From NCBI RefSeq assembly GCF_965208055.1, contig NZ_CBDBNY010000004.1:2814029-2878028 (forward strand): a stretch of 64,000 bases of DNA, given 5' to 3'. The position numbers were made by a program, and so were the translations under genes. Below, piece by piece: positions 18,060 through 60,273 of the stretch. The notes beneath the pieces were generated by a model. That model saw nothing but the letters and a program-made list of their open reading frames with translations. It had not been told where the DNA came from and did no database searches. Source of the stretch: Candidatus Palauibacter sp. (GTDB lineage: Bacteria > Gemmatimonadota > Gemmatimonadetes > Palauibacterales > Palauibacteraceae). The stretch's first letter is position 1. Each line of letters starts with the position of its first letter.

Positions 18060-18114
18060 CCGGACCGCCCGCAGTCCCGGAACTGCTTGGGAGAACAAAC
18101 CAGGAGGAGTGAGC

Positions 18115-19515
18115 ATGGAACTCATCACGGGTAAGCACATGTCCCGCCGCACGGCCCTGAAGGGCCTGGGTGCGACGGTGGCGCTGCCGTTCCTGGATGC
18201 GATGCTGCCGGCCGGCCGACTGTGGGCCTCCACGAAGTCGCTCACGGACGTGAAGCGGTTCGTGGGCATCGAGATGGTGCACGGCGCCGCCGGCTGCAAC
18301 GAATGGGGCGCGTCGCAGTTCATGTGGTCGCCCGAGAAGGTGGGGCGCGACTTCGACCTCTCGCCGAGCAGCCTGAGCCCGCTCGAGCCGTGGCGCGACT
18401 ACCTGACGATCATCTCGAACACGGACGTCGAGAACGCGGAGGCGAAGACGCCGAAGGAGATCGGCGGCGACCACTTCCGTTCCAGCGCCACCTTCCTCAC
18501 GCAGGCGCACGCGAAACAGACCGAGGGCTCGGACGTGTTGGTCGGCACCTCGATGGACCAGTACTACGCGCAGCGCTTCGGGCAGGACACGCCGATCCCC
18601 TCCATGCAGCTCTGCATCGAGAACGTGGACCAGGCGGGCGGGTGCGCATACGGCTACGCCTGCGTGTACACGGACACGATCAGCTGGGCGTCGCCGACGG
18701 AGCCGCTGCCCATGATCCGTGACCCGCGGGCCGCGTTCGACCAGTTGTTCGGGGCCGGCGGCACGTCGGAGGACCGGGCCGCGCGCCGGCGCACGGATCG
18801 GAGCATCCTCGACTGGATCGTGGGCGAGGTGAGCGGCCTCAAGCGCGCTCTGGGGCCCACGGACCAGAGGCGGCTGGACCAGTATCTCGACAATATCCGC
18901 GAGATCGAACGCCGCATCGAGCGCATCGAGGCGTATAACAGCAGCGGTGAGACGCGTGAGATCCCCGAGGCCCCGCCTGGCGTTCCGGATGACTTCGCCG
19001 AGCACGTCCATCTCATGTTCGACCTGCAGGCCCTGGCCTTCCAGTCGGACCTCACGCGGGTGTTCTCGTTCAAGCTGGGCCGCGATGGGTCGGGCCGCGT
19101 GTATCCGGGCAGCGGTGTGGACGCCGGCTTCCACCCGGCCTCGCACCACGGCGGCCGCGAAGAGCGCGTGCGGGACTACGAGAAGATCAACCGCTACCAC
19201 GTGAGCATGATGCCGTACCTGCTCGAGAAGCTGGCCAGCATCGAGGAGCCGGACGGAAACCTGCTCGACAAGACCATGATCCTGTACGGCTCGCCGATGG
19301 GTGATTCGAACCTGCACAACCACAAGCGGTGCCCGCTGTTCGTGGTCGGCAAGGCCGGCGGCGAACTCGAGGGCAACATGCACATCAAGGCGCCGGACGG
19401 GACCCCGATGGCGAACGTGATGCTGAGCCTGATGCACAAGCTCGGCCTGGAGGACATGGAGAGCTTCGGCGACAGCACGGGCGACTTCTCGTTCTCGGCG
19501 GTCGCGCAGGACTGA
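18115..19515 (+). CDS. DUF1552 (HXXSHH) Tat-exported protein (copy 1)
   Basis: SRRTALKG...ALPFLDAM, GGDH, CAYGYAC, HPASHH, HNHKRCP. Confidence 0.9.
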   Translation: MELITGKHMSRRTALKGLGATVALPFLDAMLPAGRLWASTKSLTDVKRFVGIEMVHGAAGCNEWGASQFMWSPEKVGRDFDLSPSSLSPLEPWRDYLTIISNTDVENAEAKTPKEIGGDHFRSSATFLTQAHAKQTEGSDVLVGTSMDQYYAQRFGQDTPIPSMQLCIENVDQAGGCAYGYACVYTDTISWASPTEPLPMIRDPRAAFDQLFGAGGTSEDRAARRRTDRSILDWIVGEVSGLKRALGPTDQRRLDQYLDNIREIERRIERIEAYNSSGETREIPEAPPGVPDDFAEHVHLMFDLQALAFQSDLTRVFSFKLGRDGSGRVYPGSGVDAGFHPASHHGGREERVRDYEKINRYHVSMMPYLLEKLASIEEPDGNLLDKTMILYGSPMGDSNLHNHKRCPLFVVGKAGGELEGNMHIKAPDGTPMANVMLSLMHKLGLEDMESFGDSTGDFSFSAVAQD

Positions 19516-19551
19516 GCCGCGAGACCGGGCGGAGGGTCGGAGGCAAGATCG

Positions 19552-21519
19552 ATGTTGAAGAGAACCGGCAAGGCCGGTCTTCGGGCGGCGGTCCTCGTCG
19601 CCTTCTGTGCGACCACCCTGTGGGCGGCCGCGGCGATGGACGCACCGGTAGCGGAAGCGGCGGCACGCGGAGACCTGGAGTCCGTGCGGACGCTCCTCCG
19701 CGATGGGGCGGACGTGAACGCGGCCCAGGGCGACGGCATGACCGCGCTCCACTGGGCGGCTCTCAGGGGCGACGCCGAGATGGTGTCCGTGCTCGTCTAC
19801 GCCGGGGCCAACGTCGCGTCGACCACACGCCTGGGCGCCTACACGCCACTCCACCTCGCGAGCCGGGACGGCCGGGCCAAGGCGGTCACCCTCCTCATCG
19901 AGGCCGGCAGCGACCCTGACGCGGCGACGACGACCGGCGTTACGCCCCTGCACTTCGCTGCGGCGGGCGGGGACGTGCCGACCCTCACGAGCCTGTTCGA
20001 GGCCGGGGTCGAGGTCGACGCGCGAGAGAACTCCAACGGGCAGACGCCGCTCATCTTCGCGGCTGCCGCCGGGCGTCTCGACGCCGTGAAGGCGCTGATC
20101 GCACACGGGGCGGACGTGTCGATCGCCTCGCGCGTGCTGGATTTCGTCGAGAAGGCACGCACCGACAGCGAGGCCCGGGGCCGGCGGCGGGAAGTGCTCA
20201 CGGCGATTCGGAAGGCCGAAGCCGAGGCTCGCGGCGAAACCGCCGAGGTCGGAATCACGCGCACAGACACGCCGTCCGGTCAGGAACCGACCCGGCGCGA
20301 AGCCGCCGACCGGGCGGCTCGGGACCAGACGGGCACGGCTCCCGCGACGCAGGGCGCCGGCGCGACCCCCGGCCAGGAACCCGCGGCCGCCGCGGCCGAC
20401 GAGACGCCGGCCGAGGAGCCTGACGAGGCCCAGGGCGAGGATCCCCCGGAGGGCGAGGATCCTCCCGAGGCTGAAGAAGAGGCCGAAGACGCCGAAGCCG
20501 CGAAGCCTGCGCCGCGGCCATTGGGCTATTCCGACATCGTCGGCAAGCAGGGCGGCATGACGGCGCTCCATTACGCGGTTCGCGAGGGTCACTTCGAGAC
20601 CGTCAAGTCGCTCCTGGAGGCGGGTGCGGACATCGACGGGAGGACCGGGGGGGACGAGAGCACGCCGCTCGTCGTCGCCACCGTGAACGGACACTACGAC
20701 CTTGCCGCGTGGCTGCTCGAGCAGGGAGCGGACCCGAACCTCGCCAGCGAGGACGGCGTGGCGCCCCTCTACGCGACGGTCGCCAACCGCTGGGCGCCGA
20801 AGGCGCTCTATCCGCAGCCCACCGCGTTCCGCCAGCAGGAACTCGACTACATGGAGCTGATGGAGATGCTCCTCGCCGCCGGAGCGGATCCGAACGCACG
20901 CGTGAATACGCACATCTGGTATTCCGCCTACAACTTCGACCTGCTCGGCGTGAACTTCAGCGGCGCGACCCCGTTCTGGCGGGCGGCGAAGGCGCTCGAC
21001 ATCCCCGCCATGGAGATGCTCGTGGCCGCTGGGGCCGATCCGCACATGCCGACGAGGAAGGCTCCCGAGCGCCGGCGCCGTCGTCCCGCGGACGATGAAG
21101 AAGAAGAGGAGGATCCCAGCGGACTGCCGCCGGTCGAGGTCGGGGGTCCGGGCATCCCGCCCCTCGTGGCTGCCGCCGGTTACGGCTACGGACGCTCACG
21201 CACGGGCAACCAGCACCGGCATCGGCCCGATGAATGGATGGCCACGGCCAGATACCTCGTCGAAGAGTTGGGTGCGGACGTGAACGGCCGCGACTCGGAC
21301 GGGTTCGGCGCGCTCCATTACGCTGCGGCGCGCGGCCACAACGAGTTGATCGAGTACCTCGTCGGCAAGGGCGCGGATCCGTTGATCGTGGCCCGCAGCG
21401 GCCAGACGACGGTCGACATGGCGAACGGCCCGATCCAGCGCGTGCAGCCGTTCTTCGAAACGATCGCCCTCCTCGAGGGCATGGGCGCGAAGAACAACCA
21501 CAACTGCCTCAGCTGCTGA
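19552..21519 (+). CDS. Exported ankyrin-repeat protein (copy 1)
   Basis: Signal peptide, many GxTPLH repeats, acidic insertions, ends NNHNCLSC. Confidence 0.92.
   Translation: MLKRTGKAGLRAAVLVAFCATTLWAAAAMDAPVAEAAARGDLESVRTLLRDGADVNAAQGDGMTALHWAALRGDAEMVSVLVYAGANVASTTRLGAYTPLHLASRDGRAKAVTLLIEAGSDPDAATTTGVTPLHFAAAGGDVPTLTSLFEAGVEVDARENSNGQTPLIFAAAAGRLDAVKALIAHGADVSIASRVLDFVEKARTDSEARGRRREVLTAIRKAEAEARGETAEVGITRTDTPSGQEPTRREAADRAARDQTGTAPATQGAGATPGQEPAAAAADETPAEEPDEAQGEDPPEGEDPPEAEEEAEDAEAAKPAPRPLGYSDIVGKQGGMTALHYAVREGHFETVKSLLEAGADIDGRTGGDESTPLVVATVNGHYDLAAWLLEQGADPNLASEDGVAPLYATVANRWAPKALYPQPTAFRQQELDYMELMEMLLAAGADPNARVNTHIWYSAYNFDLLGVNFSGATPFWRAAKALDIPAMEMLVAAGADPHMPTRKAPERRRRRPADDEEEEEDPSGLPPVEVGGPGIPPLVAAAGYGYGRSRTGNQHRHRPDEWMATARYLVEELGADVNGRDSDGFGALHYAAARGHNELIEYLVGKGADPLIVARSGQTTVDMANGPIQRVQPFFETIALLEGMGAKNNHNCLSC
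20432..20467 (+). repeat. 18-bp tandem repeat encoding GEDPPE twice
   Basis: agggcgaggatcccccgg / agggcgaggatcctcccg inside the ankyrin linker. Confidence 0.7.
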
Positions 21520-26000: not shown

Positions 26001-26495
26001 TCAAGGCATACAGTCGGAGAACGACTCGAAATCCATTCGGAAACGGCTCCTCTCGAGAGCCGCCTTCAGTGCATCGGCCTCCGGAACGGTGATGATCTCG
26101 CTGCGGATGGCACGGACAAGTATGCCCGCCGTCGTAAGGATACGTCCCTCGCCGACGCGTTCAACGGCAATGCGACGCACCCGGCGACGCTCATCGCACG
26201 CGAAGAGCCAGCGGCGGTATTCCGCCGCCGCTAGGCAAGCCGCCTCTCCGCGGCCCATGATCCGCTCATGCCCCACGGACAGCAGTAGTTCTGCAGGGTG
26301 CGGTGATGGTGCGGGCCTAACGAATCCCGCCGCTATGGCCTGGGAGAGAATCTCTCGCTGTTTGGATCGCGTGACTTCTTCATGCACTCGAGCGAGCACC
26401 ATGAACCGGTGTTTGGGAAGCCTGCCGAGGAGGTCGCAGCGCTCAAGGATAAGAAAATTGATGAGGACGCTGGCGTCGACCGCTACGTGGTGCAT
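26001..26495 (-). CDS. PIN-domain protein (DUF3368-like)
   Basis: VDASVLINF, VHEEV, GRGEAACL, CDER. Confidence 0.8.
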   Translation of the reverse strand: MHHVAVDASVLINFLILERCDLLGRLPKHRFMVLARVHEEVTRSKQREILSQAIAAGFVRPAPSPHPAELLLSVGHERIMGRGEAACLAAAEYRRWLFACDERRRVRRIAVERVGEGRILTTAGILVRAIRSEIITVPEADALKAALERSRFRMDFESFSDCMP

Positions 26496-26534
26496 GCGCT
26501 GCGGCGGGTCGATGTTTCCGCAGCGGCATCCACC

Positions 26535-27803
26535 CTACAGGGGTTCATGGTCGCCGACCATCACAGGCAGCGATTCCGGCTCGGCGAGACCAGCATCCTC
26601 GAGGATGCTGTCGGGGTCGGCCTCCTCATCGATCAGGCGCACGAGTTCCCGCCATTTCCCGGTCGAGATGTCCTCGCGGCGGTACGCTTCGATTGCGAGG
26701 GACAAGAAGCGGGATCGAGACTGCTTCCGAGCCTCGGCGTGGTCCGGCTCCGGCAGGCTGAGGGTCGCCCTTAGCTGCTTGGTCCGTCCGGCGAGGTCTT
26801 CTTGGGCGAGCTTGGCGCGTTCCTGTTCGCTGATGAGACGCAAAGCTTTGAGACGATAAAGCATCGCGGCACAGCTCACGCGAAACCGATGGGCGAGGCG
26901 AACGACATCGTACAACTGCAGCCGCTGGCTCCCGGGGGGCGTGCGCCCCTCGACGCTAAGTGCCGAGTCCTCATCGAAGATGTCTGCCCGGTTGCGACTC
27001 GCATGGCCCTTGGCGAACCGGTGGATCATGGAACGGATGCCCGCTTCCGGCATAAGAAAGGCCGCGGCGAAGGCGTTGGCGCGAACCTCCTCGAAGCTGT
27101 CCCTTTCGCTTGCCCGGCTTACCGTCCCCCGTCCCTCGCGGTCGCACAGGACATGGGCGTATTCGTGGGCAAAGGAAAACCGCCGCCGGAGAAAATGATG
27201 GTCGACGTTGACGGCGGTCAGGACGCCATGTTCGGGGTCGATCAGGGTTAGCCCGGAAACGTCTTCCGGGAGGCTTTCCTGCGCAGCGACGATACCTTGG
27301 TCCTCAAGAAGTTCCGCCACGTCCGGAAGCGGGGCTTCGCCCAAGTCTAGGCGGCGGCGTTCGTCCGCTGCGGCTCGCGAGCCTTGACGCACCGCTTCCC
27401 ATTTCGTGTCCGGCGTGGAGAAGGCATAACTGGGCGTGCCGAGCGATGCGCGGCGGACTCCGAGAAGTCCCTCCAGATTCGCGACTTCCCGCCCAAGTAC
27501 GACGCACCTGCGCAGGGCCTCCAGCGTGGCTTCGTCAACCGAGGACTCCTGGTGTCGGCGGAACAATGCGGTGATCGGCTCGCGCTCTACGAACTCGTCG
27601 GTCAGGAGTTCCTCTAGGTCGCGCCCGTACAGATAGGCGAGCCGATGCAGCTCGAGCCCGGACACGCGGCGACGCCCCGTCTCGATCTCCGTGACCGCCG
27701 ATCGCGCGATGCCTACGTACTTTGCGACCGCCGCCTGGGTCATGCTGCAGCTCTCTCGAACCTCACGGAGACGGCGGGCAAGCTCCTGATGGTCGATTGC
27801 CAT
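26535..27803 (-). CDS. XRE helix-turn-helix + ImmA/IrrE (DUF955) zinc metallopeptidase
   Basis: RLREVRE...SAVTEIETGRR; RRFSFAHEYAH (HExxH); EVRANAFAAAFLMP. Confidence 0.92.
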   Translation of the reverse strand: MAIDHQELARRLREVRESCSMTQAAVAKYVGIARSAVTEIETGRRRVSGLELHRLAYLYGRDLEELLTDEFVEREPITALFRRHQESSVDEATLEALRRCVVLGREVANLEGLLGVRRASLGTPSYAFSTPDTKWEAVRQGSRAAADERRRLDLGEAPLPDVAELLEDQGIVAAQESLPEDVSGLTLIDPEHGVLTAVNVDHHFLRRRFSFAHEYAHVLCDREGRGTVSRASERDSFEEVRANAFAAAFLMPEAGIRSMIHRFAKGHASRNRADIFDEDSALSVEGRTPPGSQRLQLYDVVRLAHRFRVSCAAMLYRLKALRLISEQERAKLAQEDLAGRTKQLRATLSLPEPDHAEARKQSRSRFLSLAIEAYRREDISTGKWRELVRLIDEEADPDSILEDAGLAEPESLPVMVGDHEPL

Positions 27804-27999
27804 GAGCTGAGCCTCAGTTTGACATGAATCTACGCGATGCACGTTGTCCAGAAACCGTCAAGCAGCCAAAAGCCAATGCCGACAAACGTACAGTTCGCGC
27901 CTGCGACCAAGATCGGGGAGGCAGATGCACGGCTCCGTCCTGCCACAAACACTCCAGTGTTGGTCGAACGAGAGCCGTCACCTGCCCAACCGTGTGCCA

Positions 28000-28287
28000 C
28001 TAGACCGGCTGCTTGCTGTACCGTTTCATAGCTTGGTTGACGCTACGACCATCGACCCAGACCTGAGCAACACGACGGCCGTAAATGTCGCGCGCCTTGG
28101 TCTCGATGTCCACGAACCGGTCGAGGATGAGTCTCTTAAGTGCTGCCTTCGCCTCCAAATACCCAGGCTCACCCTGCTCGGGCGTGTCGACCCCTTCTAG
28201 CCTGACGTCGGGGAGGCTGCTGCTCGTCTCAAAGGTGTCGCCGTCGAGAACGTTCGTGACGTATTCCTTCGTGCGATTCGTACTCAT
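28000..28287 (-). CDS. Minimal thermonuclease (SNase family)
   Basis: VLDGDTF, VRLEGVDTPE, DIYGR, SVNQAM; RBS GAAGGAG; no signal peptide. Confidence 0.85.
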   Translation of the reverse strand: MSTNRTKEYVTNVLDGDTFETSSSLPDVRLEGVDTPEQGEPGYLEAKAALKRLILDRFVDIETKARDIYGRRVAQVWVDGRSVNQAMKRYSKQPV

Positions 28288-29581: not shown

Positions 29582-31689
29582 GCGAGATCAGCGCGCGGAT
29601 GAGGCGAAGGCTCGGGCTCCTCGCCGTCGCGGTGGGCTTCGCGCTGGGCGTGGGCGGAGTCCGGGGGCAGTCGCACGTAACCGTGGATATCGGGGCCCGG
29701 GATCCCGCGTTCTCGCCGGACGGGTCGACGATCGCGGTCTCCATCCTGGGGAAGATCTGGACGCTTCCCGCCGAGGGCGGCACGGCGCGCCAGCTCACGG
29801 ACGGGGCCACGTGGGACACGCGGCCCGCCTGGTCGCCGGACGGCCGCTTCCTCGCCTACGCCGCGAGATCCCGCCAGGGGGCGGACATTCTCGTCCGCAA
29901 CATGGCCACGGGGGGCGTCCGCTTCCTGCATGGCGTCCCGGGGTCGGTCGGGCACATGCAGTTCCACCCGGACGGAAGCCAACTCTTCTTCGTGGACGAC
30001 CGCTCGCAGTACGAGGCGCACGTGTGGCGGATCCCGCTGGCGGGGGGCGAGGCGGAGCAGATCACGCACACGCAGAGCTGGCACGAGTGGTCGTTCGCCC
30101 TCTCGCCGGACGGGAACCGGATCCTCCTCGAGACGGGGCGCTTCGACGGCACGGACCTGTACGAACTCGACCTGGAGGAGATGTCGCTCGAGCGGGTCAC
30201 GGACACGCTGGAGCGGGAGATGGCCGTAGCGTGGGCCCCGGACGGGACGCGGCGGGCGCACGTCATGACGCACAACGGCGCCGATCAGCTCGTCGTGTCG
30301 GTGCCGGGATGGCGGAAGCTTTTCCTGAGCGCCTTCGACCAGAAGCAGCTCGCGTTCCATCCCTCCGGCGAGTGGCTGCTCGTCCTCGGGGGGCGGCGGA
30401 TGCAGCGGCTGGACCTGGAGAGCGGAGAGTTCACTCCGATTCCCTTCGAGGCTCGCTTCTCGATCGCCGAGGATCCCGCGGACGATCTGCTGATCACGAA
30501 CGTCCGCCTGTTCGACGGCACGGGCGACGAGGCGGTCCCTGCGGCGGCGGTCCTCGTCCGGGACGGGAGGATCGCGGACGTGCGGATGGGGGAGGATGGC
30601 GGGATGCCCGACATCGGGCCGGACACGCCGGTCATCGACGGGGGCGGTCGCATGCTGCTCCCGGGGCTGATGGACAACCACTACCACTACTGGCAGCCCC
30701 TCGCCGGGGCGGATCTGCTCGCGGCCGGGGTCACGGCGATCCGCGATCCGGGCTCGGCGATCCAGGACGCGATGGACTTCAAGGATGCCGTGCGGATGGG
30801 CGTGCTGGCCGGCCCCGACGTGTACACCGCCGGCCCGCTGATCGACGGCCCCGCCGGCTACCACCCCCTGGTGGACGTGAGCATCGACGACCCCGCCGCC
30901 GCCCCGGCGCTGGTGCGCGCGCTCAAGGAACAGGGCGTCGATCTGCTCAAGGCGTACTTCCTCCTCGACCCGGATGTGCTTGCGGCCGTCGTGGCCGAGG
31001 CGCGCGTGCAGGGACTGCCGGTTACGGGGCACATCGGGGTTCGCACGAGTTGGCGGCAGGCGATCGAGGCCGGGATCAGCGGTTTCAACCACATTCGGGT
31101 GTGGCGCGACTTCCTGCCCCCCGAGATCCAGGCCGACGGTCGCGACATGTCGCTCGACGGCGGACGGAACCCGGTCGGGCGCATGCAGGCCGACTGGCGG
31201 GAGATCGATCCGGAGAGCGCCGAGGTCATGTCGCTCCTCGAACTCATGGCCGAGACGGAGACCGCACTCGACCCCACGCTGTTCATCCAGGAGATCGACG
31301 ACGGCGACCGCACGCGCTTCTCGCTGGAGGAGTTCCACAACGGACGGCAGGCCTACGAGCGCATGGGCGAGTTTGTCCGGCGCGCGGTGGAGGTCGGAGT
31401 CCCGCTGCTCGCGGGCACGGACAACGTCGGGCTGTTCAACGAACTCGAGGCGTACGCGAAGGCCGGTGTGCCGAACGCCGACATCCTGCGGGCCGCGACC
31501 GCGAACGGCGCGCGCTGGCTCGGGAAGGAGGACGACTTCGGGACGGTGCAGCCGGGGCGCCGGGCGCACCTGATCCTCGTGGACGGCGACCCGCTGGAAG
31601 ACATTGCCGACCTGCGCAACATCGATCTCGTGGTGAAGGACGGCGTGATCGTCTTCGGCGGTCCCCCGGCGGAGCCGCTGGTCCCGTGA
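29578..31689 (+). CDS. PD40/TolB-like propeller + amidohydrolase
   Basis: PAFSPDG/PAWSPDG repeats; PGLMDNHYH, VTGH, AGTD. Confidence 0.87.
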   Translation: MSEISARMRRRLGLLAVAVGFALGVGGVRGQSHVTVDIGARDPAFSPDGSTIAVSILGKIWTLPAEGGTARQLTDGATWDTRPAWSPDGRFLAYAARSRQGADILVRNMATGGVRFLHGVPGSVGHMQFHPDGSQLFFVDDRSQYEAHVWRIPLAGGEAEQITHTQSWHEWSFALSPDGNRILLETGRFDGTDLYELDLEEMSLERVTDTLEREMAVAWAPDGTRRAHVMTHNGADQLVVSVPGWRKLFLSAFDQKQLAFHPSGEWLLVLGGRRMQRLDLESGEFTPIPFEARFSIAEDPADDLLITNVRLFDGTGDEAVPAAAVLVRDGRIADVRMGEDGGMPDIGPDTPVIDGGGRMLLPGLMDNHYHYWQPLAGADLLAAGVTAIRDPGSAIQDAMDFKDAVRMGVLAGPDVYTAGPLIDGPAGYHPLVDVSIDDPAAAPALVRALKEQGVDLLKAYFLLDPDVLAAVVAEARVQGLPVTGHIGVRTSWRQAIEAGISGFNHIRVWRDFLPPEIQADGRDMSLDGGRNPVGRMQADWREIDPESAEVMSLLELMAETETALDPTLFIQEIDDGDRTRFSLEEFHNGRQAYERMGEFVRRAVEVGVPLLAGTDNVGLFNELEAYAKAGVPNADILRAATANGARWLGKEDDFGTVQPGRRAHLILVDGDPLEDIADLRNIDLVVKDGVIVFGGPPAEPLVP

Positions 31690-32450
31690 TCGACCCGGCC
31701 ATAACCGGCGCCGTCGAAGCCGTCTCCCTCGCGGCCCTGCAGGTGGAGCCGGCGGGCGGGCTCCTCCCGGCGCTCTCCGACAACCCGTTCCTCGCGCTCG
31801 GCGCGCTCTTCGGGGCGGGCGTGCTCACGAGCACGAACCCGTGCATCTGGCCGATGATCCCGATCACGTTCTCCGTCATCTCGGGGACGGCGGGCGAGGA
31901 CCAGCCGCGAAAGCGCACCATCGGACTCACGCTCACGTATGCTCTCGGGCTCGCGCTCCTCTATTCACTGCTGGGTGTCATCGCCGGCCTCAGCGGTACC
32001 GTGCTCGGCTCGATCGGGGCGAGCTTCTGGGCGCTGTTCGCGACCGGCAATCTCCTTCTCTTCTTCTCGCTGTTCATGCTCGACGTGTTCCCCGTCCCGG
32101 TGCCGAAGCGACTCCTGGCCTGGGCGAGCAGCCACGGCGGCGGGTCCTACCGGGCCGTGTTCCTGCTCGGCGCGACCTCCGGCATCGTGGCCGCGCCGTG
32201 CGGCGCTCCCGCCTTCGCCGTGGTCCTGACCTGGGTCGTCGCCGAACAGGCCGGGCTCATGGGGTTCGTCTACCTGTTCACCTTCTCGATCGGCATGACC
32301 GCCGTGCTCATCGCGGTGGGTCTCTTCTCGGGAACGGTCGCGGTGTTGCCGAAGTCGGGAACGTGGATGATCTGGATGAAACGGGCCGCCGCCGCCATCA
32401 TGATCGGGATGGCGCAGTTCTACCTCATCCGGGCGGGATATTTTCTGTGA
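31686..32450 (+). CDS. ccdA: CcdA/DsbD transmembrane electron-transfer protein
   Basis: TSTNPCIWPMIP, AAPCGAP, LPKSGTWM. Confidence 0.88.
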   Translation: MIDPAITGAVEAVSLAALQVEPAGGLLPALSDNPFLALGALFGAGVLTSTNPCIWPMIPITFSVISGTAGEDQPRKRTIGLTLTYALGLALLYSLLGVIAGLSGTVLGSIGASFWALFATGNLLLFFSLFMLDVFPVPVPKRLLAWASSHGGGSYRAVFLLGATSGIVAAPCGAPAFAVVLTWVVAEQAGLMGFVYLFTFSIGMTAVLIAVGLFSGTVAVLPKSGTWMIWMKRAAAAIMIGMAQFYLIRAGYFL

Positions 32451-52143: not shown

Positions 52144-52885
52144 ACTGGAGACCGAAGTCACAGGGTGGCGCCGGAAAGTGGAGCGCAGCTCTTCGCTTTC
52201 TCCGCGCGAAGTCGACGAATTGGAGGACCACCTCCGCGCGCGCTTCGAGCTGGAACTCGAGATGACGCCCGAGCAGTCCCCGGCCCGAGCCTTCAACACC
52301 GTCTGCGCTGAACTGGGTGAAGCAGCCGCGCTTTCGAAGGAGTTCGCGAAAGCTGGACGGCAAAGGTGGCGGCCCGTGCTGCTGGCCGGGTGGGCGATGT
52401 TCACGGCCTCGTTCTTTCTCCCACTCTCTCGAACAGTCTGGGTTGAAGCCGGATCGCTCCACCCTGACCTCGTGGCCTTCGTCGGATCGCAACGCCCATA
52501 TGAGTTCCTGCGGGAGCTGATGACGGCGCTGGTCACGATGGGAGACGTGGTGTCGATGGTGTGGATCGGCGCCGCGGTGCTCCTCCCCAATCTGCCGATC
52601 CTCATGACCCTCCCGGCGCTGCTGGGCTCCCGGCGACCCGACCGGCGGTGGCTCCGGTGGATCCTCGGCGGCATGGGCGTAGCGAACCTGGGGCTGGGGA
52701 TGTCTCGTGTCTTCAGTCCGGCGCCCTTCCCGTACGAGGAGGCTGCCGTTGCGCACCAATACCCCGGCGCTGGCTACTGGCTGTGGTCCGCTTCGTTCGC
52801 TCTTGCGGCAGCCGCCCTCTGGCTCCGGGGCCGGAACTGGGCCGCGAGCGGATCGGCGGAATCGGTGGCCGAGAGGGCGGTCTAG
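52136..52885 (+). CDS. Membrane protein with PadR-associated N-terminal helical domain (paralog 2)
   Basis: EVDELEDHL...LGEAAALSKEF followed by about four TM segments. Confidence 0.75.
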   Translation: MFELETEVTGWRRKVERSSSLSPREVDELEDHLRARFELELEMTPEQSPARAFNTVCAELGEAAALSKEFAKAGRQRWRPVLLAGWAMFTASFFLPLSRTVWVEAGSLHPDLVAFVGSQRPYEFLRELMTALVTMGDVVSMVWIGAAVLLPNLPILMTLPALLGSRRPDRRWLRWILGGMGVANLGLGMSRVFSPAPFPYEEAAVAHQYPGAGYWLWSASFALAAAALWLRGRNWAASGSAESVAERAV

Positions 52886-52990
52886 CAAAACCTTCGGCTG
52901 GCCGGGCGCTCTGCGTCGATGGTACATTTTACAGTTGGTGTATCCTTGCGCCCCGCGGGGCGCGGCGCGTTGCTGGAAGAGGCCTCGGAC

Positions 52991-55495
52991 ATGCGAACAT
53001 CGCTTCTCCTGCTGGTCGCAGCGGGTGTTCTCCCGAGCCCCGTCGTCGGTCAGGAGGCTGACGGCGCGAGGGGGCCCGAGCATCCTCCGGCTACCTGGCC
53101 GCAAGCGGTCACGCGACTGACCGGCCCAACACCAACGCCCGCGGTCGACACCCTCTCCGTCGAGGTCGCGCAGGGGGTCGTCGCCGGGACGTGCATGCGC
53201 TGCCACAACCCGCGCCGGGTCAGCGGGGGCATGTCGCTCGAGACCTTCGAGGTGGCTTCGGCCGCCGACAACGCCGTGGTCGCGGAGCGGATGGTGCGAA
53301 AACTGCGGGCCGGCATGATGCCGCCGGTCGGAGTGCGCCGCCCGACGCCCGACAGCCTGCGGACGCTCGCGGCCGTCCTCGAGTCCCGGCTCGACGCCGC
53401 GTGGGACGCCGACCCGAACCCGGGACGGCGGACCTTCCAGCGGCTGAACCGGGCCGAGTACTCGCGCTCGATTTACGATCTCCTCGACCTGGACATCGAT
53501 GCCGGCGACTACCTGCCGTTGGACACGAAGAGCGCGAACTTCGACAACATCGCCGACGTCCAGTTGCTCTCCCCGACGCTCATGGACGGATACCTGCGCG
53601 CGGCGAGCGAGATCAGCCGGCTCGCGGTCGGCGACCCCGAGGTCACGCCGAGCGAGGCGACGTTCCGGGTGTCGCGCTGGACCTCCCAGGCGGAGCACGT
53701 CGAAGGCACGCCGTACGGGAGCCGGGGCGGCGTGGCGGTGGACCACAACTTCCCGGCCGACGGGGAGTACGTCTTCCGCGTCTCCTTCCATCACGAGACG
53801 ACCGGCGCCCTGTTCGGGAACGGCAAGGGCGCCCTGCACACGACCGACGAACCCGAACGGATCGAGGTCTCGATCGATGGCGAGCGGGTCGCGCTCCTCG
53901 ACATCGACCGCTGGATGCATGTCTCGGACCCGGACGGCGTGAACCTTCGGACGGAGCCCGTCTTCATCGAGGCGGGTCCGCACCGGGTGGCGGCGGCCTT
54001 CATCCGCACCTTCGAGGGGCCGTCGCAGGACCTGATGTCGCCGCACGACTGGTCGATCGCGAGCACGAGCATCACGGACGCGTACGGGTTCACGACGCTG
54101 CCGCACCTGCGGGACCTCGCGGTGACGGGCCCCTTCGCTCCGGCGGGGATTTCCTCCACGCCGAGTCGCGAGCGCGTGTTCTCGTGCCGCCCCTCGGCGC
54201 CGGAGGAGGAGACGCCGTGCGCGGAGGCGATCCTCTCGCGGCTGGGGACGAGGGCCTACCGCCGGCCGCTGACGGACGAGAACCTCGCCGCGCTCATGAA
54301 TCTCTACCGCGCCGGGGCCGAAGCGGGCGGTTTCGAGGAGGGGATCCGGCTCGCGGTGGAAGGGATTCTCGCCAGTCCGCACTTCGTCTTTCGGTTCGAG
54401 GAGCGACCGGCGCGGGAAGCGGACGGAGTGTACGCGCTGGACGACTACGATCTCGCCTCGCGACTCTCCTTCTTCCTCTGGGCCACGGGTCCCGACGACG
54501 AACTGCTGGAAGTCGCCGCGGAGGGCCGGCTCTCCGACGCGGCGGTGCTCGACGCGCAGGTGCGCCGCATGCTGGCCGACCCGCGCGCCGAGGCGCTGGC
54601 CACGCGCTTCGCGGGACAGTGGTTCCGGCTGCAGGACCTCGAGGGCATGAACCCCGATGTCCGCCTCTATCCGGATTTCGACCAGCAGCTCAAGGAGGCG
54701 ATGCACCGCGAGACGGAACTCCTCTTCCACACGCTGGTGCAGGAGGACCGGAGCCTGCTCGAACTGCTGACGGCCGACTACACGTTCGTGAACGAGCGCC
54801 TCGCGCGGCACTACGGCATCCCGGGCGTGACGGGAACGGATTTCCGGAGGGTCGAGATCCTCGAACCCGAGCGCCGTGGCGTGCTGGGGCACGGCAGCAT
54901 CCTCACCCTCACCTCGCACGCGAGCCGGACGTCCCCCGTCCTCCGCGGGAAGTGGGTGATGGAGGTGCTGCTGGGGACGCCTCCGCCTCCGCCCCCGCCG
55001 GACGTCTCCGACCTGGAGGCGACGCCGGAGGCCGAGGAAGGACGCCTGCTCACGGTGCGGGAGCGACTGGAGATGCACCGGGCGAGCCCGGCCTGCCGTT
55101 CGTGCCACCGCGTGATCGATCCCATCGGTCTCGCGCTGGAGTACTTCGACGGCACCGGGGGGCGGCGCATCAAGGACAGCGGGATGCCGATCGACGCGCA
55201 GGGCGAACTCTACGACGGCACGCCGGTGACGAGCGCGGCGGATCTGCGCGCGGCGCTCCTCGCCCGGCCGGTGCCGCTCGTGCGCGCGTTCACCGAGAAC
55301 CTGCTCGCCTACGCGCTGGGCCGGCGGGTCGAGTACTACGACATGCCGACCGTACGGTCCATCGCCCGGCAGGCGGCCGCACGGGACCACCGAATGTCCG
55401 CGTTCATCCTCGGCGTGGTCAACAGCCCGGCGTTCCGATTGAAGGGGACCGAGGCCGTGGTCGACGACATGCAAGCGGGATCCCAGGAGGACTGA
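52991..55495 (+). CDS. DUF1592/DUF1588-type multidomain protein with two heme-c motifs (copy 2)
   Basis: Signal peptide, CMRCH, MMPP, RLNRAEY, RTSPVLRGKW, CRSCH. Confidence 0.9.
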   Translation: MRTSLLLLVAAGVLPSPVVGQEADGARGPEHPPATWPQAVTRLTGPTPTPAVDTLSVEVAQGVVAGTCMRCHNPRRVSGGMSLETFEVASAADNAVVAERMVRKLRAGMMPPVGVRRPTPDSLRTLAAVLESRLDAAWDADPNPGRRTFQRLNRAEYSRSIYDLLDLDIDAGDYLPLDTKSANFDNIADVQLLSPTLMDGYLRAASEISRLAVGDPEVTPSEATFRVSRWTSQAEHVEGTPYGSRGGVAVDHNFPADGEYVFRVSFHHETTGALFGNGKGALHTTDEPERIEVSIDGERVALLDIDRWMHVSDPDGVNLRTEPVFIEAGPHRVAAAFIRTFEGPSQDLMSPHDWSIASTSITDAYGFTTLPHLRDLAVTGPFAPAGISSTPSRERVFSCRPSAPEEETPCAEAILSRLGTRAYRRPLTDENLAALMNLYRAGAEAGGFEEGIRLAVEGILASPHFVFRFEERPAREADGVYALDDYDLASRLSFFLWATGPDDELLEVAAEGRLSDAAVLDAQVRRMLADPRAEALATRFAGQWFRLQDLEGMNPDVRLYPDFDQQLKEAMHRETELLFHTLVQEDRSLLELLTADYTFVNERLARHYGIPGVTGTDFRRVEILEPERRGVLGHGSILTLTSHASRTSPVLRGKWVMEVLLGTPPPPPPPDVSDLEATPEAEEGRLLTVRERLEMHRASPACRSCHRVIDPIGLALEYFDGTGGRRIKDSGMPIDAQGELYDGTPVTSAADLRAALLARPVPLVRAFTENLLAYALGRRVEYYDMPTVRSIARQAAARDHRMSAFILGVVNSPAFRLKGTEAVVDDMQAGSQED

Positions 55496-56886
55496 TGGAG
55501 TTCATCACAGGGAAACACCTCTCTCGCCGGACCTTCCTCCGGGGCGCGGGGGCGACCGTCGCTCTGCCGCTGCTCGATGCGATGGTGCCGGCGGGCCGGC
55601 TGTGGGCGCGGGAGGTCGCGGATCCGACGCGGCTGGTCTGCGTCGAGATGGTGCACGGCGCGGCGGGAAGCAGCGGGTTCGGGGCGGCACAGAACTACTG
55701 GTCGCCGGCGGCCACGGGCCGGGGATTCGACCTGTCGCCGACCGCGTTGAGTTCGCTCGAGCCGTACCGGGACTATCTCACGATCATCAGCGACACGGAC
55801 GTCGAGACGGCGGAGGCGACGAAGCCGAAGGAGATCGGGGGGGACCACTTCCGGTCGAGCGCCACCTTCCTCACGCAGTCGCATCCGAAGCAGACCGAGA
55901 GTTCGGACGTGTTGGTCGGGACGTCGCTGGACCAACTCTACGCGCACCGATTCGGGCAGGACACACCGATCCCGTCCATGCAGCTCTGCATCGAGAACGT
56001 CGACCAGGCGGGAGGCTGCGCGTACGGGTACGCGTGCGTCTACACGGATACGATCAGCTGGTCCTCGCCGACGCAGCCGCTCCCGATGATCCGGGATCCC
56101 CGGGTCGCGTTCGACCAGCTGTTCGGGGCCGGCGGGACGCCGGAAGCGCGCGCGGCGCGACAGCGCTCGAGCGCAAGCATCCTCGACTTCCTCACCGGTG
56201 AGGTCGCGAGCCTCAAGGGGCGGCTCGATCCCTCCGACCGGCAGCGCATGGACCGCTATTTGGAGAACGTCCGGGAGATCGAGCGTCGCATCCAGCGGGT
56301 CGTGGCGCGCAACGAGTCGGGCGAGCGCCGGGACCTGCCGGAGGCGCCGGCGGGGGTACCGGATTCGTTCGACGAGCATGTGAAGCTGATGTTCGACCTG
56401 CAGGCGCTCGCCTTCCAGGCGGACATGACGCGCGTGTTCTCGTTCAAGATGGGGCGGGACGCGTCGGGCCGGGTCTATCCGGAGAGCGGAATCGACAAGG
56501 GCTTCCACCCGGCGTCGCACCACGGCGACAACGAGAACAACATCACGGACTTCGCGCAGATCAACCGCTATCATGTCGGGCTCGTCCCGTACTTCCTCGA
56601 CCGGTTGAAGGAGTCGATGGAGGGGGACACGCACCTGCTCGACAAGACGATGATCGTCTACGGATCGCCGATGGGGGATCCGAACGTGCACAACCACAAA
56701 CGGTGCCCGCTCTTCGTGATGGGGGGCGCGCAGGGGAGGATCGAAGGCAACCTGCACCTGCGGGCCGCGCCGGGGACGCCGATGGCGAACGTGATGTTGA
56801 GCCTCATGCACCGGCTGGGGATGGAGGACATGACGAGCTTCGGGAACAGCACCGGAGCGTTCTCGTTCGCGGAGACGGCGGACTGA
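55495..56886 (+). CDS. DUF1552 (HXXSHH) Tat-exported protein (copy 2)
   Basis: SRRTFLRG, GGDH, CAYGYAC, HPASHH, HNHKRCP. Confidence 0.9.
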   Translation: MEFITGKHLSRRTFLRGAGATVALPLLDAMVPAGRLWAREVADPTRLVCVEMVHGAAGSSGFGAAQNYWSPAATGRGFDLSPTALSSLEPYRDYLTIISDTDVETAEATKPKEIGGDHFRSSATFLTQSHPKQTESSDVLVGTSLDQLYAHRFGQDTPIPSMQLCIENVDQAGGCAYGYACVYTDTISWSSPTQPLPMIRDPRVAFDQLFGAGGTPEARAARQRSSASILDFLTGEVASLKGRLDPSDRQRMDRYLENVREIERRIQRVVARNESGERRDLPEAPAGVPDSFDEHVKLMFDLQALAFQADMTRVFSFKMGRDASGRVYPESGIDKGFHPASHHGDNENNITDFAQINRYHVGLVPYFLDRLKESMEGDTHLLDKTMIVYGSPMGDPNVHNHKRCPLFVMGGAQGRIEGNLHLRAAPGTPMANVMLSLMHRLGMEDMTSFGNSTGAFSFAETAD

Positions 56887-58667
56887 TGCGGCGCGCGCGA
56901 TCGGTCGCCTTCGCGGCCGCGGCGCTGCTCGCGCTCGGGGCGGCGGCGCCGGTCGGGTCGCCGGACGGGCCGGCCGGGCCGGATGCGCCGGTCGCCGACG
57001 CGGCCATGCGCGGCGACCTGGACGCCGTGCGGTCGCTGCTCGCCGCGGGCGAGGACGTGAACGGCGCCCGGGGCGACGGAATGACGGCACTCCACTGGGC
57101 CGCGATGAAGGGGCGGCTCGACGTGGCCCAAGTGCTGATCGAGGCGGGCGCGGACCTTGGAGCGGGCACGCGGCTGGGCGGGCACGCGCCGCTCCACGTT
57201 GCGAGCCGGGCGGCGCACGCGCCGCTCGTCGAAGCGCTGCTGGAGGCGGGAGCCGACGCCCTCGCCGCGACGTCGACCGGCGCGACCGCGCTGCACTTCG
57301 CCGCCGCCGCCGGGTCGCCGGAGGCGGTCGCGGCGCTGCTGCGCCACGGCGCCGATCCGAACGCCCGGGAGCCCGAATGGGGTCAGACGCCGCTCATGTT
57401 CGCCGCGGCGGCGGGCCGGGCCGGCTCGGCGAGTGCCCTCGTCGACGCGGGGGCCGACGTTTCGCTCACCGCCTACGTGCTCGACATCGTGGCGCGCGAC
57501 GCGTGGGACCAGCTCGACCGCCGCGAGCGCAATGCCCGCGTGGCCGCGCTCCGGGCGGGCCGCGCGCCGCCGCCCGCGAACGAGCGTGAACCGGCCCCCG
57601 GGCCGACCGCCGCGCCCGGCTCCGGCCCCCAGCCCGTGCGGCTGGCGGACCCGGAGGAGCCGGCCTGCTCCGGCTGCCTGGGCAACTATGCCGACCTCGT
57701 GGGTACGCACGGCGGGCTGACCGCGCTGCTGCTCGCCGCCCGCGAAGGCCACCGCGACGTGGCGCTGGCCCTGCTCGACGAGGGTGCGGACATCGACCAG
57801 CGGAGCGCCGCGGACGACACGACCCCGCTGCTCATCGCGATGATCAACGGGCACTTCGACCTCGCGATGGAACTCTTCGCGCGGGGCGCCGACCCCACCC
57901 TCGCGAGCGATGCCGGCGCCACCCCGCTGTACGCGGCGCTCAACATGCACTGGGCCCCGAAGGCGCGGCATCCGCAGCCCACGGACGTGCACCAGCAGGA
58001 ATGGTCGTACCTCGACGTCCTGCGAACGTTGCTCGAAGCGGGCGTCGACCCCAACCCGCGGCTCAAGAAGTCGCTCTGGTTCACGACCTACAATCGCGAT
58101 CTGCTCGGGGTCGACCGCACCGGCGCCACGCCCTTCTGGCGCGCCGCGCACGCGCTCGACATCGACGCCATGAAGCTGCTCCTGGAGTACGGGGCCGATC
58201 CCGCGATTCCGACGGCGAAGGTGCCGGAGCGGCGTTACGGCCGGGGCGGAGACGACATCGATCATTCCGGTCTCGACCCGATCCCCGTCGGGGGACCGGC
58301 CGTCCATCCGATCCATGCGGCGGCCGGCGTCGGCTACGGGCAGGGCTTCGCCGGCAACTCGCACCGCCATGTGCCGGATGGCTGGCTACCCGCCATGAAG
58401 TTCCTTGTCGAGGAACTCGGCGCCGACGTGAACGCGCGCGACCACAACGGGTACACGCCCGCCCACCACGCCGCCTCGCGCGGCGACAACGAGATGATCC
58501 TCTATCTCGTCGAGCGGGGCGCCGACGTGACGCTCGTGGCCCGTAACGGCCAGACCACGGTGGACCTGGCGAACGGACCTGTGCAGCGGGTGCAGCCGTT
58601 CCCGGAGACGATCGCCCTCCTGGAGAGCCTCGGCGCGAGGAACAACCACCGCTGCGTCTCCTGCTGA
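56886..58667 (+). CDS. Exported ankyrin-repeat protein (copy 2)
   Basis: Signal peptide, ankyrin repeats, internal CSGC, ends NNHRCVSC. Confidence 0.92.
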   Translation: MRRARSVAFAAAALLALGAAAPVGSPDGPAGPDAPVADAAMRGDLDAVRSLLAAGEDVNGARGDGMTALHWAAMKGRLDVAQVLIEAGADLGAGTRLGGHAPLHVASRAAHAPLVEALLEAGADALAATSTGATALHFAAAAGSPEAVAALLRHGADPNAREPEWGQTPLMFAAAAGRAGSASALVDAGADVSLTAYVLDIVARDAWDQLDRRERNARVAALRAGRAPPPANEREPAPGPTAAPGSGPQPVRLADPEEPACSGCLGNYADLVGTHGGLTALLLAAREGHRDVALALLDEGADIDQRSAADDTTPLLIAMINGHFDLAMELFARGADPTLASDAGATPLYAALNMHWAPKARHPQPTDVHQQEWSYLDVLRTLLEAGVDPNPRLKKSLWFTTYNRDLLGVDRTGATPFWRAAHALDIDAMKLLLEYGADPAIPTAKVPERRYGRGGDDIDHSGLDPIPVGGPAVHPIHAAAGVGYGQGFAGNSHRHVPDGWLPAMKFLVEELGADVNARDHNGYTPAHHAASRGDNEMILYLVERGADVTLVARNGQTTVDLANGPVQRVQPFPETIALLESLGARNNHRCVSC

Positions 58668-58740
58668 CCGCGAGCCGTCGACGACTCGTGACGAGAACCC
58701 ATCAACAAGACCGGCGAACTCGGGCCGGCCTGACCTGACC

Positions 58741-60273
58741 ATGCCGGATACCGCTACTGTCTGGGAACTGCTCGCGGGCGGTTCGGGGGAGAGTCCCGCC
58801 ATCGCCGCCCCCGACCGCCAACCTCTCGACTTCGCGGGCCTCTGCCGACACGTCGAGACGACCGTCGGCGCCCTCAACGGCTTCGGCATCGGGCGGGGCG
58901 ATCGCGTGGCGATCGTGCTCCCCAACGGTCCCGAGATGGCTTCCGCCTTCGTCTCCGTGGCGTGCGCGGCGACGGCCGCCCCCCTGAACCCGGCCTACCG
59001 GCAGCCCGAGTACGAGTTCTACCTCTCCGACCTGAGCGCGAAGGCGCTCATCCTCGAAGCGGGCAGCGACTCCCCGGCGCGCACCGCGGCCGCCGACATC
59101 GGGATCCCGATTCTCGAGTTGCACGCCGACGCCGAAGCTCCCGCCGGGACGTTCGAACTCGTGCGGCAGGGACCCGGGGAGGACGGATCCGCCGCCGCGA
59201 ATTCGGGGCTTGGGACGGCGGATGACGTCGCACTCATCCTTCACACCTCCGGAACGACATCGCGCCCCAAGATCGTGCCGCTCTCCCACCGGAACGTCTG
59301 CGCCTCCGCGGGCAACATCCAGCGCACGCTGCGGCTCACGGCTGAGGATCGCTGCCTGAACGTGATGCCGCTGTTTCACATCCACGGACTCATAGCGGCC
59401 GTGCTCGCGCCGCTCGGCGTCGGAGGCTCGATCTTCTGCACCCCCGGCTTCAACGTGCTCCGCTTCTTCTCGTGGCTCGACGAAGCGCGGCCCACGTTCT
59501 ACACGGCCGTTCCCACGATGCATCAGGCGATTCTGGCGCGCGCCCCGAGGAACCGCGACGCGGTCGAGCGGAACCCGCTGCGCTTCATCCGCTCGGCTTC
59601 CGCCTCCCTCCCGCCGCAGGTGATGGCGGAACTCGAGGACACGTTCGGCGCTCCCGTGGTGGAGGCGTACGCGATGACCGAAGCGGCGCACCAGATGACG
59701 TGCAACCCGCTTCCGCCCGCGGCGCGCAAGCCGGGCACGGTCGGGATCGCCGCGGGCCCCGAGGTTTCGATCATGGACGAGGCCGGAGCGCTCCTGCCGG
59801 CGGGCGAGGTGGGGGAGATCGTCATCCGCGGCGCGAACGTCAGCGACGGCTACGAGAACAACCCCGCCGCGAATGCCGAGGCCTTCACCAACGGGTGGTT
59901 CCGGACGGGGGACCAGGGCGTGCTGGACGACGAGGGCTACGTCACGATCACCGGACGCCTGAAGGAGATCATCAACCGCGGGGGCGAGAAGATCTCACCG
60001 CGCGAGATCGACGAGGCGATCCTCGACCACCCGGCCGTGCGCCAGGTCGTGGCGTTCGCGGTGCCGCACCCGAAGCTGGGCGAGGAAATCGCGGCGGCCG
60101 CGGTGCTCCGCGAGGGGATGGAGGCGACGCCGCGCGAACTGCAGGCGTTCGCGGCGGAGCGGCTCGCCGACTTCAAGGTCCCCCGGAAGATCCTTCTCAT
60201 GGACGACATCCCCAAGGGTCCGACCGGCAAGCTCCAGCGCATCGGCATGGCCGAGAAGCTCGGCCTGACCTGA
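58741..60273 (+). CDS. Acyl-CoA synthetase, probable oxalate-CoA ligase
   Basis: HTSGTTSRPK, PLFHIHG, FIRSASASL, EAYAMTEAAH, PKGPTGKLQR. Confidence 0.8.
   Translation: MPDTATVWELLAGGSGESPAIAAPDRQPLDFAGLCRHVETTVGALNGFGIGRGDRVAIVLPNGPEMASAFVSVACAATAAPLNPAYRQPEYEFYLSDLSAKALILEAGSDSPARTAAADIGIPILELHADAEAPAGTFELVRQGPGEDGSAAANSGLGTADDVALILHTSGTTSRPKIVPLSHRNVCASAGNIQRTLRLTAEDRCLNVMPLFHIHGLIAAVLAPLGVGGSIFCTPGFNVLRFFSWLDEARPTFYTAVPTMHQAILARAPRNRDAVERNPLRFIRSASASLPPQVMAELEDTFGAPVVEAYAMTEAAHQMTCNPLPPAARKPGTVGIAAGPEVSIMDEAGALLPAGEVGEIVIRGANVSDGYENNPAANAEAFTNGWFRTGDQGVLDDEGYVTITGRLKEIINRGGEKISPREIDEAILDHPAVRQVVAFAVPHPKLGEEIAAAAVLREGMEATPRELQAFAAERLADFKVPRKILLMDDIPKGPTGKLQRIGMAEKLGLT

Follow-up and report, generated by a model that had tools for sequence, protein, structure and literature searches.

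A cytochrome-DUF1552-ankyrin gene triad present in five diverged copies in a Candidatus Palauibacter genome

Introduction

Why would a bacterium keep an ankyrin-repeat gene directly behind a multidomain cytochrome gene and a DUF1552 gene, and do so more than once? The question is raised by a stretch of 64,000 nucleotides (the window) from Candidatus Palauibacter sp., assembly GCF_965208055.1, contig NZ_CBDBNY010000004.1, positions 2,814,029 to 2,878,028 of the forward strand. Two copies of this triad lie in the window, and the second, at positions 52991-58667, is the subject here; the cytochrome, DUF1552 and ankyrin genes are called A, B and C, with a number for the copy. The triad is real, ancient and maintained by selection; it adds a dedicated ankyrin gene to a gene pair that has been recorded before but not characterised. 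On balance, it is probably an operon for three exported proteins that cooperate in the periplasm, one of five anciently diverged paralogous sets.

Organization of the locus

The window has a high GC content (0.63-0.73), and genes were therefore chosen by third-position GC together with Pfam matches. The two triads are laid out as follows.

52991-55495, + strand: A2, open reading frame (ORF) with start; predicted exported protein of 834 amino acids, PSD3-PSD5-PSD4(DUF1592)-PSCyt3-PSD2, two CxxCH
55493-55497, + strand: junction A2/B2, TGATG; 1-nt overlap in which the stop TGA shares a base with the ATG, read directly
55495-56886, + strand: B2, DUF1552 (HXXSHH) protein of 463 amino acids with a predicted alkaline-phosphatase-superfamily fold
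56884-56888, + strand: junction B2/C2, TGATG; 1-nt overlap in which the stop TGA shares a base with the ATG, read directly
56886-58667, + strand: C2, predicted exported ankyrin-repeat protein of 593 amino acids with N-terminal repeats, a variable linker and an atypical C-terminal block
15615-21519, + strand: copy 1 triad, A1 15615-18059, B1 18115-19515, C1 19552-21519, with gaps of ~55 and 36 nt

A first-pass annotation of this DNA had described copy 2 as repeating the gene order of copy 1, with TGATG at both junctions and with all heme, His and Cys motifs retained. The ORFs and a direct reading of the junctions agree: the genes stand in identical order in the two copies and match identical Pfam families, and both copies keep two CxxCH motifs, HPASHH and a terminal CxSC. 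Between the copies, BLASTP aligns A at 63% identity (493/783) and B at 72% (335/464); for C it gives 58% over the C-terminal half (190/330) and 48% over the N-terminal block (102/214). The overlaps belong to copy 2 only. Copy 1 has gaps of 55 and 36 nt, which shows that the family shares tight operon spacing in general but not overlap. With start sites chosen by script, overlapping or abutting junctions are a minority among 62 related complete triads (8/62 for A-B and 14/62 for B-C), and the median spacings are 29 and 20 nt. The TGATG junctions of copy 2 are both kept in the Palauibacter orthologues L004 and L005, and L006 keeps the B-C junction only. A GGAGGA sits 4 nt ahead of the B2 ATG.

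A scan of positions 52400-59000 gave no promoter-like site and a single terminator-like site, inside B2, which is fewer than in shuffled sequence (mean 1.8). Two RNA-labelled runs match the stretch, a small share (0.08). In a sponge metatranscriptome run, 421 contigs match, giving depth in 28/30 bins, and 263 of these contigs are no more than 90-95% alike. This match is no evidence that the locus is transcribed, because the contigs come from relatives and DNA carry-over is possible.

Copy number, distribution and linkage

Where the first-pass annotation spoke of two copies, a genome-wide count gives five. The genome (4.09 Mb in 4 contigs, 94% complete) contains five DUF1552 matches and five PSD4 matches, and tblastn places an ankyrin gene after each of the five A-B pairs. 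The resulting five complete triads, T1 to T5, include copy 1 as T1 and copy 2 as T2, and three of them fall inside 83 kb. Their A-B/B-C spacings in nt are +55/+36 (T1), -1/-1 (T2), -4/-4 (T3), 0/-4 (T4) and +47/+2 (T5), so that the B-C junction overlaps in three of the five. DUF1501 was not found in this genome at its 94% completeness. Ankyrin genes are few: 23 Ank_2 matches fall in six genes, five of which are triad members. The sole non-triad ankyrin gene lies outside the window (G000:C4:1503407-1503883) in an open frame of 290 amino acids.

The linkage extends well beyond this genome. A scan with the ankyrin alignment, using one genome per species, confirmed 451 stretches; the 80 best of these make up the 77 loci compared here, which come from Gemmatimonadota and Acidobacteriota. 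These loci contain 89 ankyrin genes, and in all 68 cases with at least 4.3 kb upstream, A and then B precede the ankyrin gene on the same strand. Strict distance limits hold in 65 of the 68 cases; the others, L025, L042 and L047, were confirmed by inspection, and in L042 and L047 only the C-terminal half of the ankyrin gene was matched. L025 has ~1.4 kb (~3890-5290) between A and B of an otherwise normal triad. No opposite-strand match was found in the 77 loci. The unit is self-contained, since no conserved flanking gene family recurs in more than 8/77 loci. The triad occurs with the same gene order in Acidobacteriota bins (Vicinamibacteria/Vicinamibacterales) and in Gemmatimonadota. Within the latter phylum it is patchy, as judged by DUF1552 in 6/61 sampled genomes. 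In the five genomes besides this one, 10/11 DUF1552 matches have an ankyrin C-terminal half 1.1-1.4 kb downstream, and the eleventh is partial (profile positions 6-192 of 307) and on a different contig.

Several relatives have tandem triads, in orders such as BCABC and ABCABC. In L027, L030-L032, L041, L043, L057, L059 and L066, a T2-type triad comes immediately after a T4-type one; T4 and T2 are 2.7 Mb apart in the present genome.

Age of the copies and selection

Gene trees were built for 67 triads by a quick IQ-TREE search under LG+G4; the loci contain 72 triads, of which 10 were excluded because they are incomplete. Comparison of the trees for A, B and C shows 41-44 of 64 splits in common, and label shuffles give at most 2. 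All three trees contain a T1-type clade (22 rows) and a T2-type clade (28 rows), with T1/T2 support of 100/93 for A, 94/91 for B and 99/98 for C. Where the trees disagree with strong support, the disagreement is limited to the deep positions of small groups. For two small clades defined by A, the B data do not reject the grouping and even score better (approximately unbiased test, p-AU 0.56 and 0.67). In L019-L021 the ankyrin genes group with the T2 type and the A genes with the T3/T5 type, which may reflect occasional module shuffling or a tree artefact and leaves the window copies unaffected.

Identity between paralogues is 55-74%, against 87-96% for orthologues in other Palauibacter bins, and both the T1-type and the T2-type clades contain Gemmatimonadota and Acidobacteriota. 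By these sequence comparisons, the triads are old paralogues, each copy having closer orthologues in other genomes. The same holds for the best database matches of the ankyrin C-terminal half, which come from Gemmatimonadales, Ca. Palauibacter and Vicinamibacteria at 75-99% identity, versus 58% between the window copies.

Selection was measured as the ratio of nonsynonymous to synonymous rates (dN/dS) by NG86, against four orthologues of copy 1 and three of copy 2 (dS 0.21-0.56).

Copy 1: A 0.09-0.11, B 0.08-0.13, C 0.09-0.13
Copy 2: A 0.09-0.12, B 0.06-0.08, C 0.18-0.20

YN00 ratios are lower still where YN00 converged. The linker (0.78) and the N-terminal block (0.27) account for the higher ratio of C2; the C-terminal half of C, at 0.04-0.12, is constrained as strongly as the enzymes. 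The first-pass annotation had proposed that both copies are maintained, in its view as stoichiometric complexes, and had named incongruent gene trees and relaxed selection on one copy as signs to the contrary. Ratios of 0.06-0.20 in both copies indicate purifying selection, which supports their maintenance, and neither incongruence for the window copies nor relaxation of one copy was found. Pairwise distances correlate across all gene pairs (r 0.85-0.88), with partial correlations of 0.54 (A-B), 0.49 (A-C) and 0.36 (B-C). Because the pairs lack independence, these values are too soft to tell which protein C binds.

The cytochrome, protein A

Pfam identifies A2 as a PSCyt3/PSD multidomain cytochrome, with five models (PF07626, PF07637, PF07631, PF07627 and PF07624) above the gathering score and in the usual order. 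The matches are PSD3 at residues 150-213 (73.7 bits), PSD5 at 410-470 (78.2), PSD4 at 483-610 (166.5), PSCyt3 at 628-728 (119.2) and PSD2 at 742-815 (76.9), against cut-offs of 23-34. The PSCyt and PSD domains are said to have been described originally in Rhodopirellula baltica. Other searches were negative: NCBIfam has no family for A or for B, a PDB sequence search with the A profile gave no match at E < 0.03, and Foldseek on the A model gave none at E up to 0.001. The model itself has a mean predicted local distance difference test (pLDDT) of 82.7 and a predicted template modeling score (pTM) of 0.84. The features of A2 discussed in this section and the next are listed here.

53192-53206, + strand: haem motif 1, CMRCH, A2 residues 68-72
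53648-54145, + strand: central β-jelly-roll domain, A2 residues ~220-385; resembles CBM36/CBM6/CBM35 by VIA-align
53777-53860, + strand: class-specific loop 1 (the "insert" of the first-pass annotation), residues 263-290, SFHHETTGALFGNGKGALHT..., pLDDT < 50 at 270-285
54038-54094, + strand: class-specific loop 2, residues 350-368, pLDDT < 50 at 350-368
55094-55108, + strand: haem motif 2, CRSCH, A2 residues 702-706 in the PSCyt3 domain, with invariant H696 close by

A1 and A2 each have two CxxCH motifs, as do 66/67 related A proteins. Across 38 A sequences, C68, C71, H72, M110 and P111 are invariant, and M110, in the M110-P111 pair downstream of haem motif 1, is likely a Met ligand. Haem attachment is possible because the genome has two Cytochrom_C_asm matches. 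Copies 1 and 2 share 89% identity in the PSCyt3 domain, where dN/dS is 0.03-0.04, and 41% in the N-terminal haem-1 region.

A jelly-roll domain with class-specific loops

Residues ~220-385 of A2 align by VIA-align with carbohydrate-binding module (CBM) families 36, 6 and 35 at Z 8.5-7.0 and a root-mean-square deviation (rmsd) of 3.0-3.6 Å, covering 100-113 of 120-135 target residues, and CBM6/35/36 modules make up most of the 50 matches listed. No Pfam CBM family is among the A2 matches at E up to 0.001. The domain is called a CBM-type jelly-roll rather than a proven CBM, because a Z near 8 can reflect common arrangement only.

The first-pass annotation had noted that a central β-rich insert differs between the copies. 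BLASTP bears this out: FHHETTGALFG in copy 2 stands opposite MHPGPTGFLYG in copy 1, with a 7-residue gap alongside. This segment, loop 1, follows the pattern SF[HY]HETTG..G.G...L[HQ][TS] in 28/28 T2-type A proteins. It is nine columns shorter and varied in 22/22 T1-type proteins, and shorter still in T3/T5 types. Loop 2 differs by the clade-specific residues H352I, S358D, A362G and F367V. A strict count of clade-specific residues gave few sites (11 in A, 6 in B and 13 in C), and loop 1 escaped it owing to the variability of the T1-type loop. Thirty positions around the loops, including R245, H252, D257, D347 and H372, are each identical in at least 64/67 A proteins.

In CBM6/35/36 modules, the binding site is formed by the loops. 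The combination seen here, of a conserved core and loops that vary by class on a fold of the binding-module type, is compatible with a role in substrate specificity, which the annotation had suggested for the insert. The surrounding region is not the most divergent part of the protein, with residues 214-409 being 58% identical between copies against 41% for the haem-1 region. Within lineages the jelly-roll region is strongly constrained, with a dN/dS of 0.075 and 0.046.

The DUF1552 protein, B

B2 matches DUF1552/HXXSHH (PF07586) with 293.8 bits against a cut-off of 30. Two motifs stand out.

55522-55542, + strand: twin-arginine motif SRRTFLR at the B2 N-terminus
56506-56523, + strand: HPASHH motif, B2 residues 338-343, also HPASHH in B1

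Export of B by the twin-arginine translocation (Tat) route is suggested by a pair of arginines within the first 25 residues of 67/67 B proteins; the Pfam TAT_signal model scores 22.3 bits on B2, slightly below its cut-off of 22.7. HxxSHH is likewise present in 67/67. Invariant residues in 38 B sequences (E51, S99, D102, D117-H118, H338, S341-H342-H343 and H399-N400-H401) suggest a metal site of unusual His-rich make-up.

The structure model of B is of middling quality (pLDDT 69, pTM 0.79), and within that limit its core has the fold of the alkaline-phosphatase superfamily. In VIA-align, 243-292 residues of it superpose on nucleotide pyrophosphatases/phosphodiesterases (NPPs) and sulfatases (Z 15.5-14, rmsd 3.6-4.6 Å), and 418 chains reach Z of at least 8; the best Foldseek E is 3.8e-4. 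Assignment as a type I sulfatase was rejected, as the formylglycine motif [CS]xPxR is not in B2 and the regular expression matches only 3/67 B proteins. A PDB sequence search with the B profile gave no match at E < 0.03, and the Protein Atlas returned DUF1552 clusters only.

The ankyrin partner, C, and its Cys-pair tail

The Pfam ankyrin models PF00023 and PF12796 match C2 above cut-off with 182.7 and 186.1 bits. In alignments, C begins with a block of repeats, continues with a linker that varies and ends in an atypical block whose Trp, Arg and His residues include invariant ones, and the N-terminus of C2, judged by eye, looks like a signal peptide. The most constant feature is at the other end of the protein.

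58647-58664, + strand: C-terminal tail HRCVSC of C2; C1 ends in CLSC and C2 in CVSC

A CxSC terminus is present in 119/120 of the best database matches of the ankyrin C-terminal half. Among triad ankyrins, 66/67 have N-[NST]-x-x-CxxC (also summarised as NN[H/N]xCxxC), 50 of them at the very end and 16 another 1-9 residues in; the residues after the pair in these 16/67 are Gly-rich. Many of the 67 C proteins have no cysteines other than this tail pair. The sole exception to the tail motif (1/67) is the T3 ankyrin of this genome, which lies outside the window (locus L001, G000:C4:2906287-2912938) and has Cys-x12-Cys, several His and an acidic/basic extension of 29 residues. C2 has a second CxxC, CSGC, in its otherwise variable linker (residues 261-264, window 57666-57677), as do its close orthologues L004-L006, P0019 and P0114, which brings the count to four cysteines; other classes have 'EPxPLNY' at this position.

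Two readings of C by analogy were discarded. A CaaX prenylation box does not suit a Cys pair whose position varies (50/67 at the end, 16 offset and 1 replaced) on proteins with signal-like N-termini. The NCBIfam equivalog models for ankyrin effectors of the Legionella Dot/Icm system reach only 24-106 bits where 450-1400 would be required, which reflects generic repeats only. A protein search with the ankyrin C-terminal half returned 2794 proteins at E up to 1e-30 and gives no family size, with giant generic ankyrin proteins crowding the list. None of the best 120 of 239 proteins longer than this half carries PF07586 or PF07631; all are generic ankyrin proteins.

Proposed mechanism and alternatives

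Gene order, co-divergence and shared constraint are most readily accommodated by the cooperation in the periplasm put forward above as on balance probable. In such a scheme, A would be a Sec-exported c-type cytochrome whose jelly-roll holds a substrate while two c-haems relay electrons. B would be exported folded through the Tat system and would supply a metal-dependent catalytic part. C would serve as the cognate, class-specific partner of A and/or B, and its tail, with invariant His and Cys-x-x-Cys, may handle a metal or a disulfide at that partner. The five sets would then serve different substrates. A specific contact of C is argued from the fact that each of the five triads keeps its own C, which co-diverges by class with A and B; a general helper would need neither. 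A more ambitious form of the scheme, unlikely as it stands, is a previously undescribed class of periplasmic enzyme. In it, A would select a polymer- or sugar-derived substrate through its loops and B would carry out redox-coupled chemistry. The ankyrin protein, a type of subunit seldom met in bacterial enzymes, would clamp the pair and add a His/Cys-x-x-Cys metal or dithiol site, and the five sets would form a substrate-specific battery like polysaccharide utilisation loci.

Several observations weigh against cooperation of the three proteins as drawn here. It is not obvious why a hydrolase with the alkaline-phosphatase fold should need a cytochrome. The B model falls below pLDDT 50 at residues 107-141 and 168-197, where several of the invariant residues lie, and the jelly-roll match, at Z 8.5, is borderline and may reflect no more than a similar general arrangement. 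One of the clades defined by A is weakly rejected by the C data (p-AU 0.023, log-likelihood difference 39; for the other, p 0.50). C may be dispensable elsewhere, since A-B pairs are described with no third gene in the parts of PMC5615132 covered here. Finally, a search for proteins longer than B gave 13 singleton records in which A-B or B-C are joined. These records are read as artefacts of assembly or gene calling, because an internal signal or Tat peptide persists at the three printed junctions and several of the other records contain stretches matching neither gene.

The chief alternative, somewhat unlikely, is that C is a transient periplasmic factor for maturation or repair of A or B, for example keeping the CxxCH cysteines reduced or delivering a metal, much as the periplasmic AnkB is said to assist the catalase KatB. 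A lone Cys pair on a terminal tail, with 1-9 Gly-rich residues beyond it in 16/67 proteins, would suit such a factor, as would the A-B pairs of other phyla for which the same excerpts report no third gene. A general factor would not need five paralogues, however, and here each triad has its own, co-diverging by class; the C-terminal half of C is constrained like the enzymes, and the B-C junction overlaps in 14/62 related triads as well as in three of the five here. A quite different role, in the host, would make the ankyrin genes "eukaryotic-like proteins" of a sponge symbiont, acting for example in escape from phagocytosis and merely located beside A-B. The close relatives are indeed sponge-metagenome bins named Ca. 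Palauibacter, the stretch is found in runs labelled sponge metagenome, and ankyrin proteins of sponge symbionts are interpreted as host-acting in the sections of PMC13747020 considered. This role is nonetheless very improbable, given a triad that keeps its order in Acidobacteriota bins as well as in Gemmatimonadota, A-B upstream in 68/68 readable cases, an ankyrin gene that co-diverges with both and matches to the Legionella effector models far below cut-off. It is scarcely credible that the copies are redundant recent duplicates drifting without distinct roles, as the clustering of three triads within 83 kb and the tandem triads of relatives might suggest. Paralogues at 55-74% identity against orthologues at 87-96%, clades that each span two phyla, low dN/dS in both copies and loops fixed within a class all point the other way. 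The cooperative scheme is the favored account of the triad.

Other genes of the window

Three further genes of the window were recorded. In a multicopper oxidase ORF of 762 amino acids (1013-3298, + strand), ~280 residues precede the first of the Cu-oxidase_3 and Cu-oxidase_2 domains. An ORF of 879 amino acids (29811-32447, + strand) matches the DsbD transmembrane domain in its last 210 residues, and its first 650 have no Pfam match at E up to 1e-5. A helix-turn-helix plus Peptidase_M78 (IrrE-like) protein (26535-27839, - strand) lies in the stretch of lowest GC (0.633 at 26001-28000).

Comparison with known systems

The katB-ankB locus of Pseudomonas aeruginosa offers a precedent for an ankyrin protein in this setting: AnkB is a periplasmic ankyrin protein said to support the catalase KatB. 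AnkB resembles C in having a signal sequence, ankyrin repeats and a gene just downstream of one for a haem enzyme; it is much smaller, and its partner is a catalase.

The domains of A and B find partial counterparts elsewhere. CBM6, CBM35 and CBM36 are β-jelly-rolls of ~120-135 residues that align nearly end to end with residues 220-385 of A, at an identity of 8-17% and a Z of only 8.5. The alkaline-phosphatase superfamily (NPPs, sulfatases and LtaS) has a core fold like that of B, with conserved acidic and His residues at strand ends; B differs in its ~10% identity, in a His-rich HxxSHH/HNH cluster in place of the sulfatase motif and in always accompanying a cytochrome. In Cbp2D of Cellvibrio japonicus, DUF1587 (PSD3) adjoins a c-type cytochrome domain that reduces copper lytic polysaccharide monooxygenases acting on polysaccharides, according to the passages of PMC8981238 at hand. 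Like A, Cbp2D is exported and multidomain and combines a c-type cytochrome domain with DUF1587; unlike A, it has X domains and FN3, and those passages mention neither a DUF1552 nor an ankyrin partner (PMC8981238). Other appearances of these families are brief in the extracts of the sources consulted: DUF1552 occurs once in a Rhodopirellula stress table (PMC2754498), and DUF1588, DUF1587, DUF1592 and DUF1595 are among the domains proposed for addition to make Pseudomonas putida capable of anaerobic respiration (PMC7789669).

The closest known system is the PSCyt3-DUF1552 pair of Verrucomicrobiota and Planctomycetota. In the portions of PMC5615132 covered, PSCyt3 genes usually adjoin a gene of unknown family, with no function known, some PSCyt genes carry CBMs, and the cytochrome/DUF1552 pair is frequent in some Planctomycetes-Verrucomicrobia-Chlamydiae (PVC) genomes. 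The main text of the Palauibacterales paper does not mention ankyrin, cytochrome c or DUF. An ankyrin partner of the pair was not found in the portions seen of the literature searched on DUF1552/DUF1592, PSCyt3/DUF158x/HXXSHH and DUF1501/DUF1800.

To this picture the present analysis contributes the count of five copies, tests of the gene trees and of selection, the placement of the class-specific loops on a jelly-roll and the observation that 5/6 ankyrin genes of this sponge-associated genome lie in triads. Because these five genes are in operons and the operon also occurs in Acidobacteriota, counts of ankyrin genes as "eukaryotic-like" host-interaction factors would overstate that signal for genomes of this kind. 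The published pair and the triad agree in the domains of A (PSD3, PSD5, PSD4, PSCyt3 and PSD2), in the HXXSHH family of B and in the adjacency of the two genes. They differ in the constant third gene, an ankyrin gene with a Cys-pair tail, and in the five diverged copies; a third gene goes unmentioned in the parts of PMC5615132 covered. The constant third partner and the class-specific loops provide experimental handles on the published gene pair.

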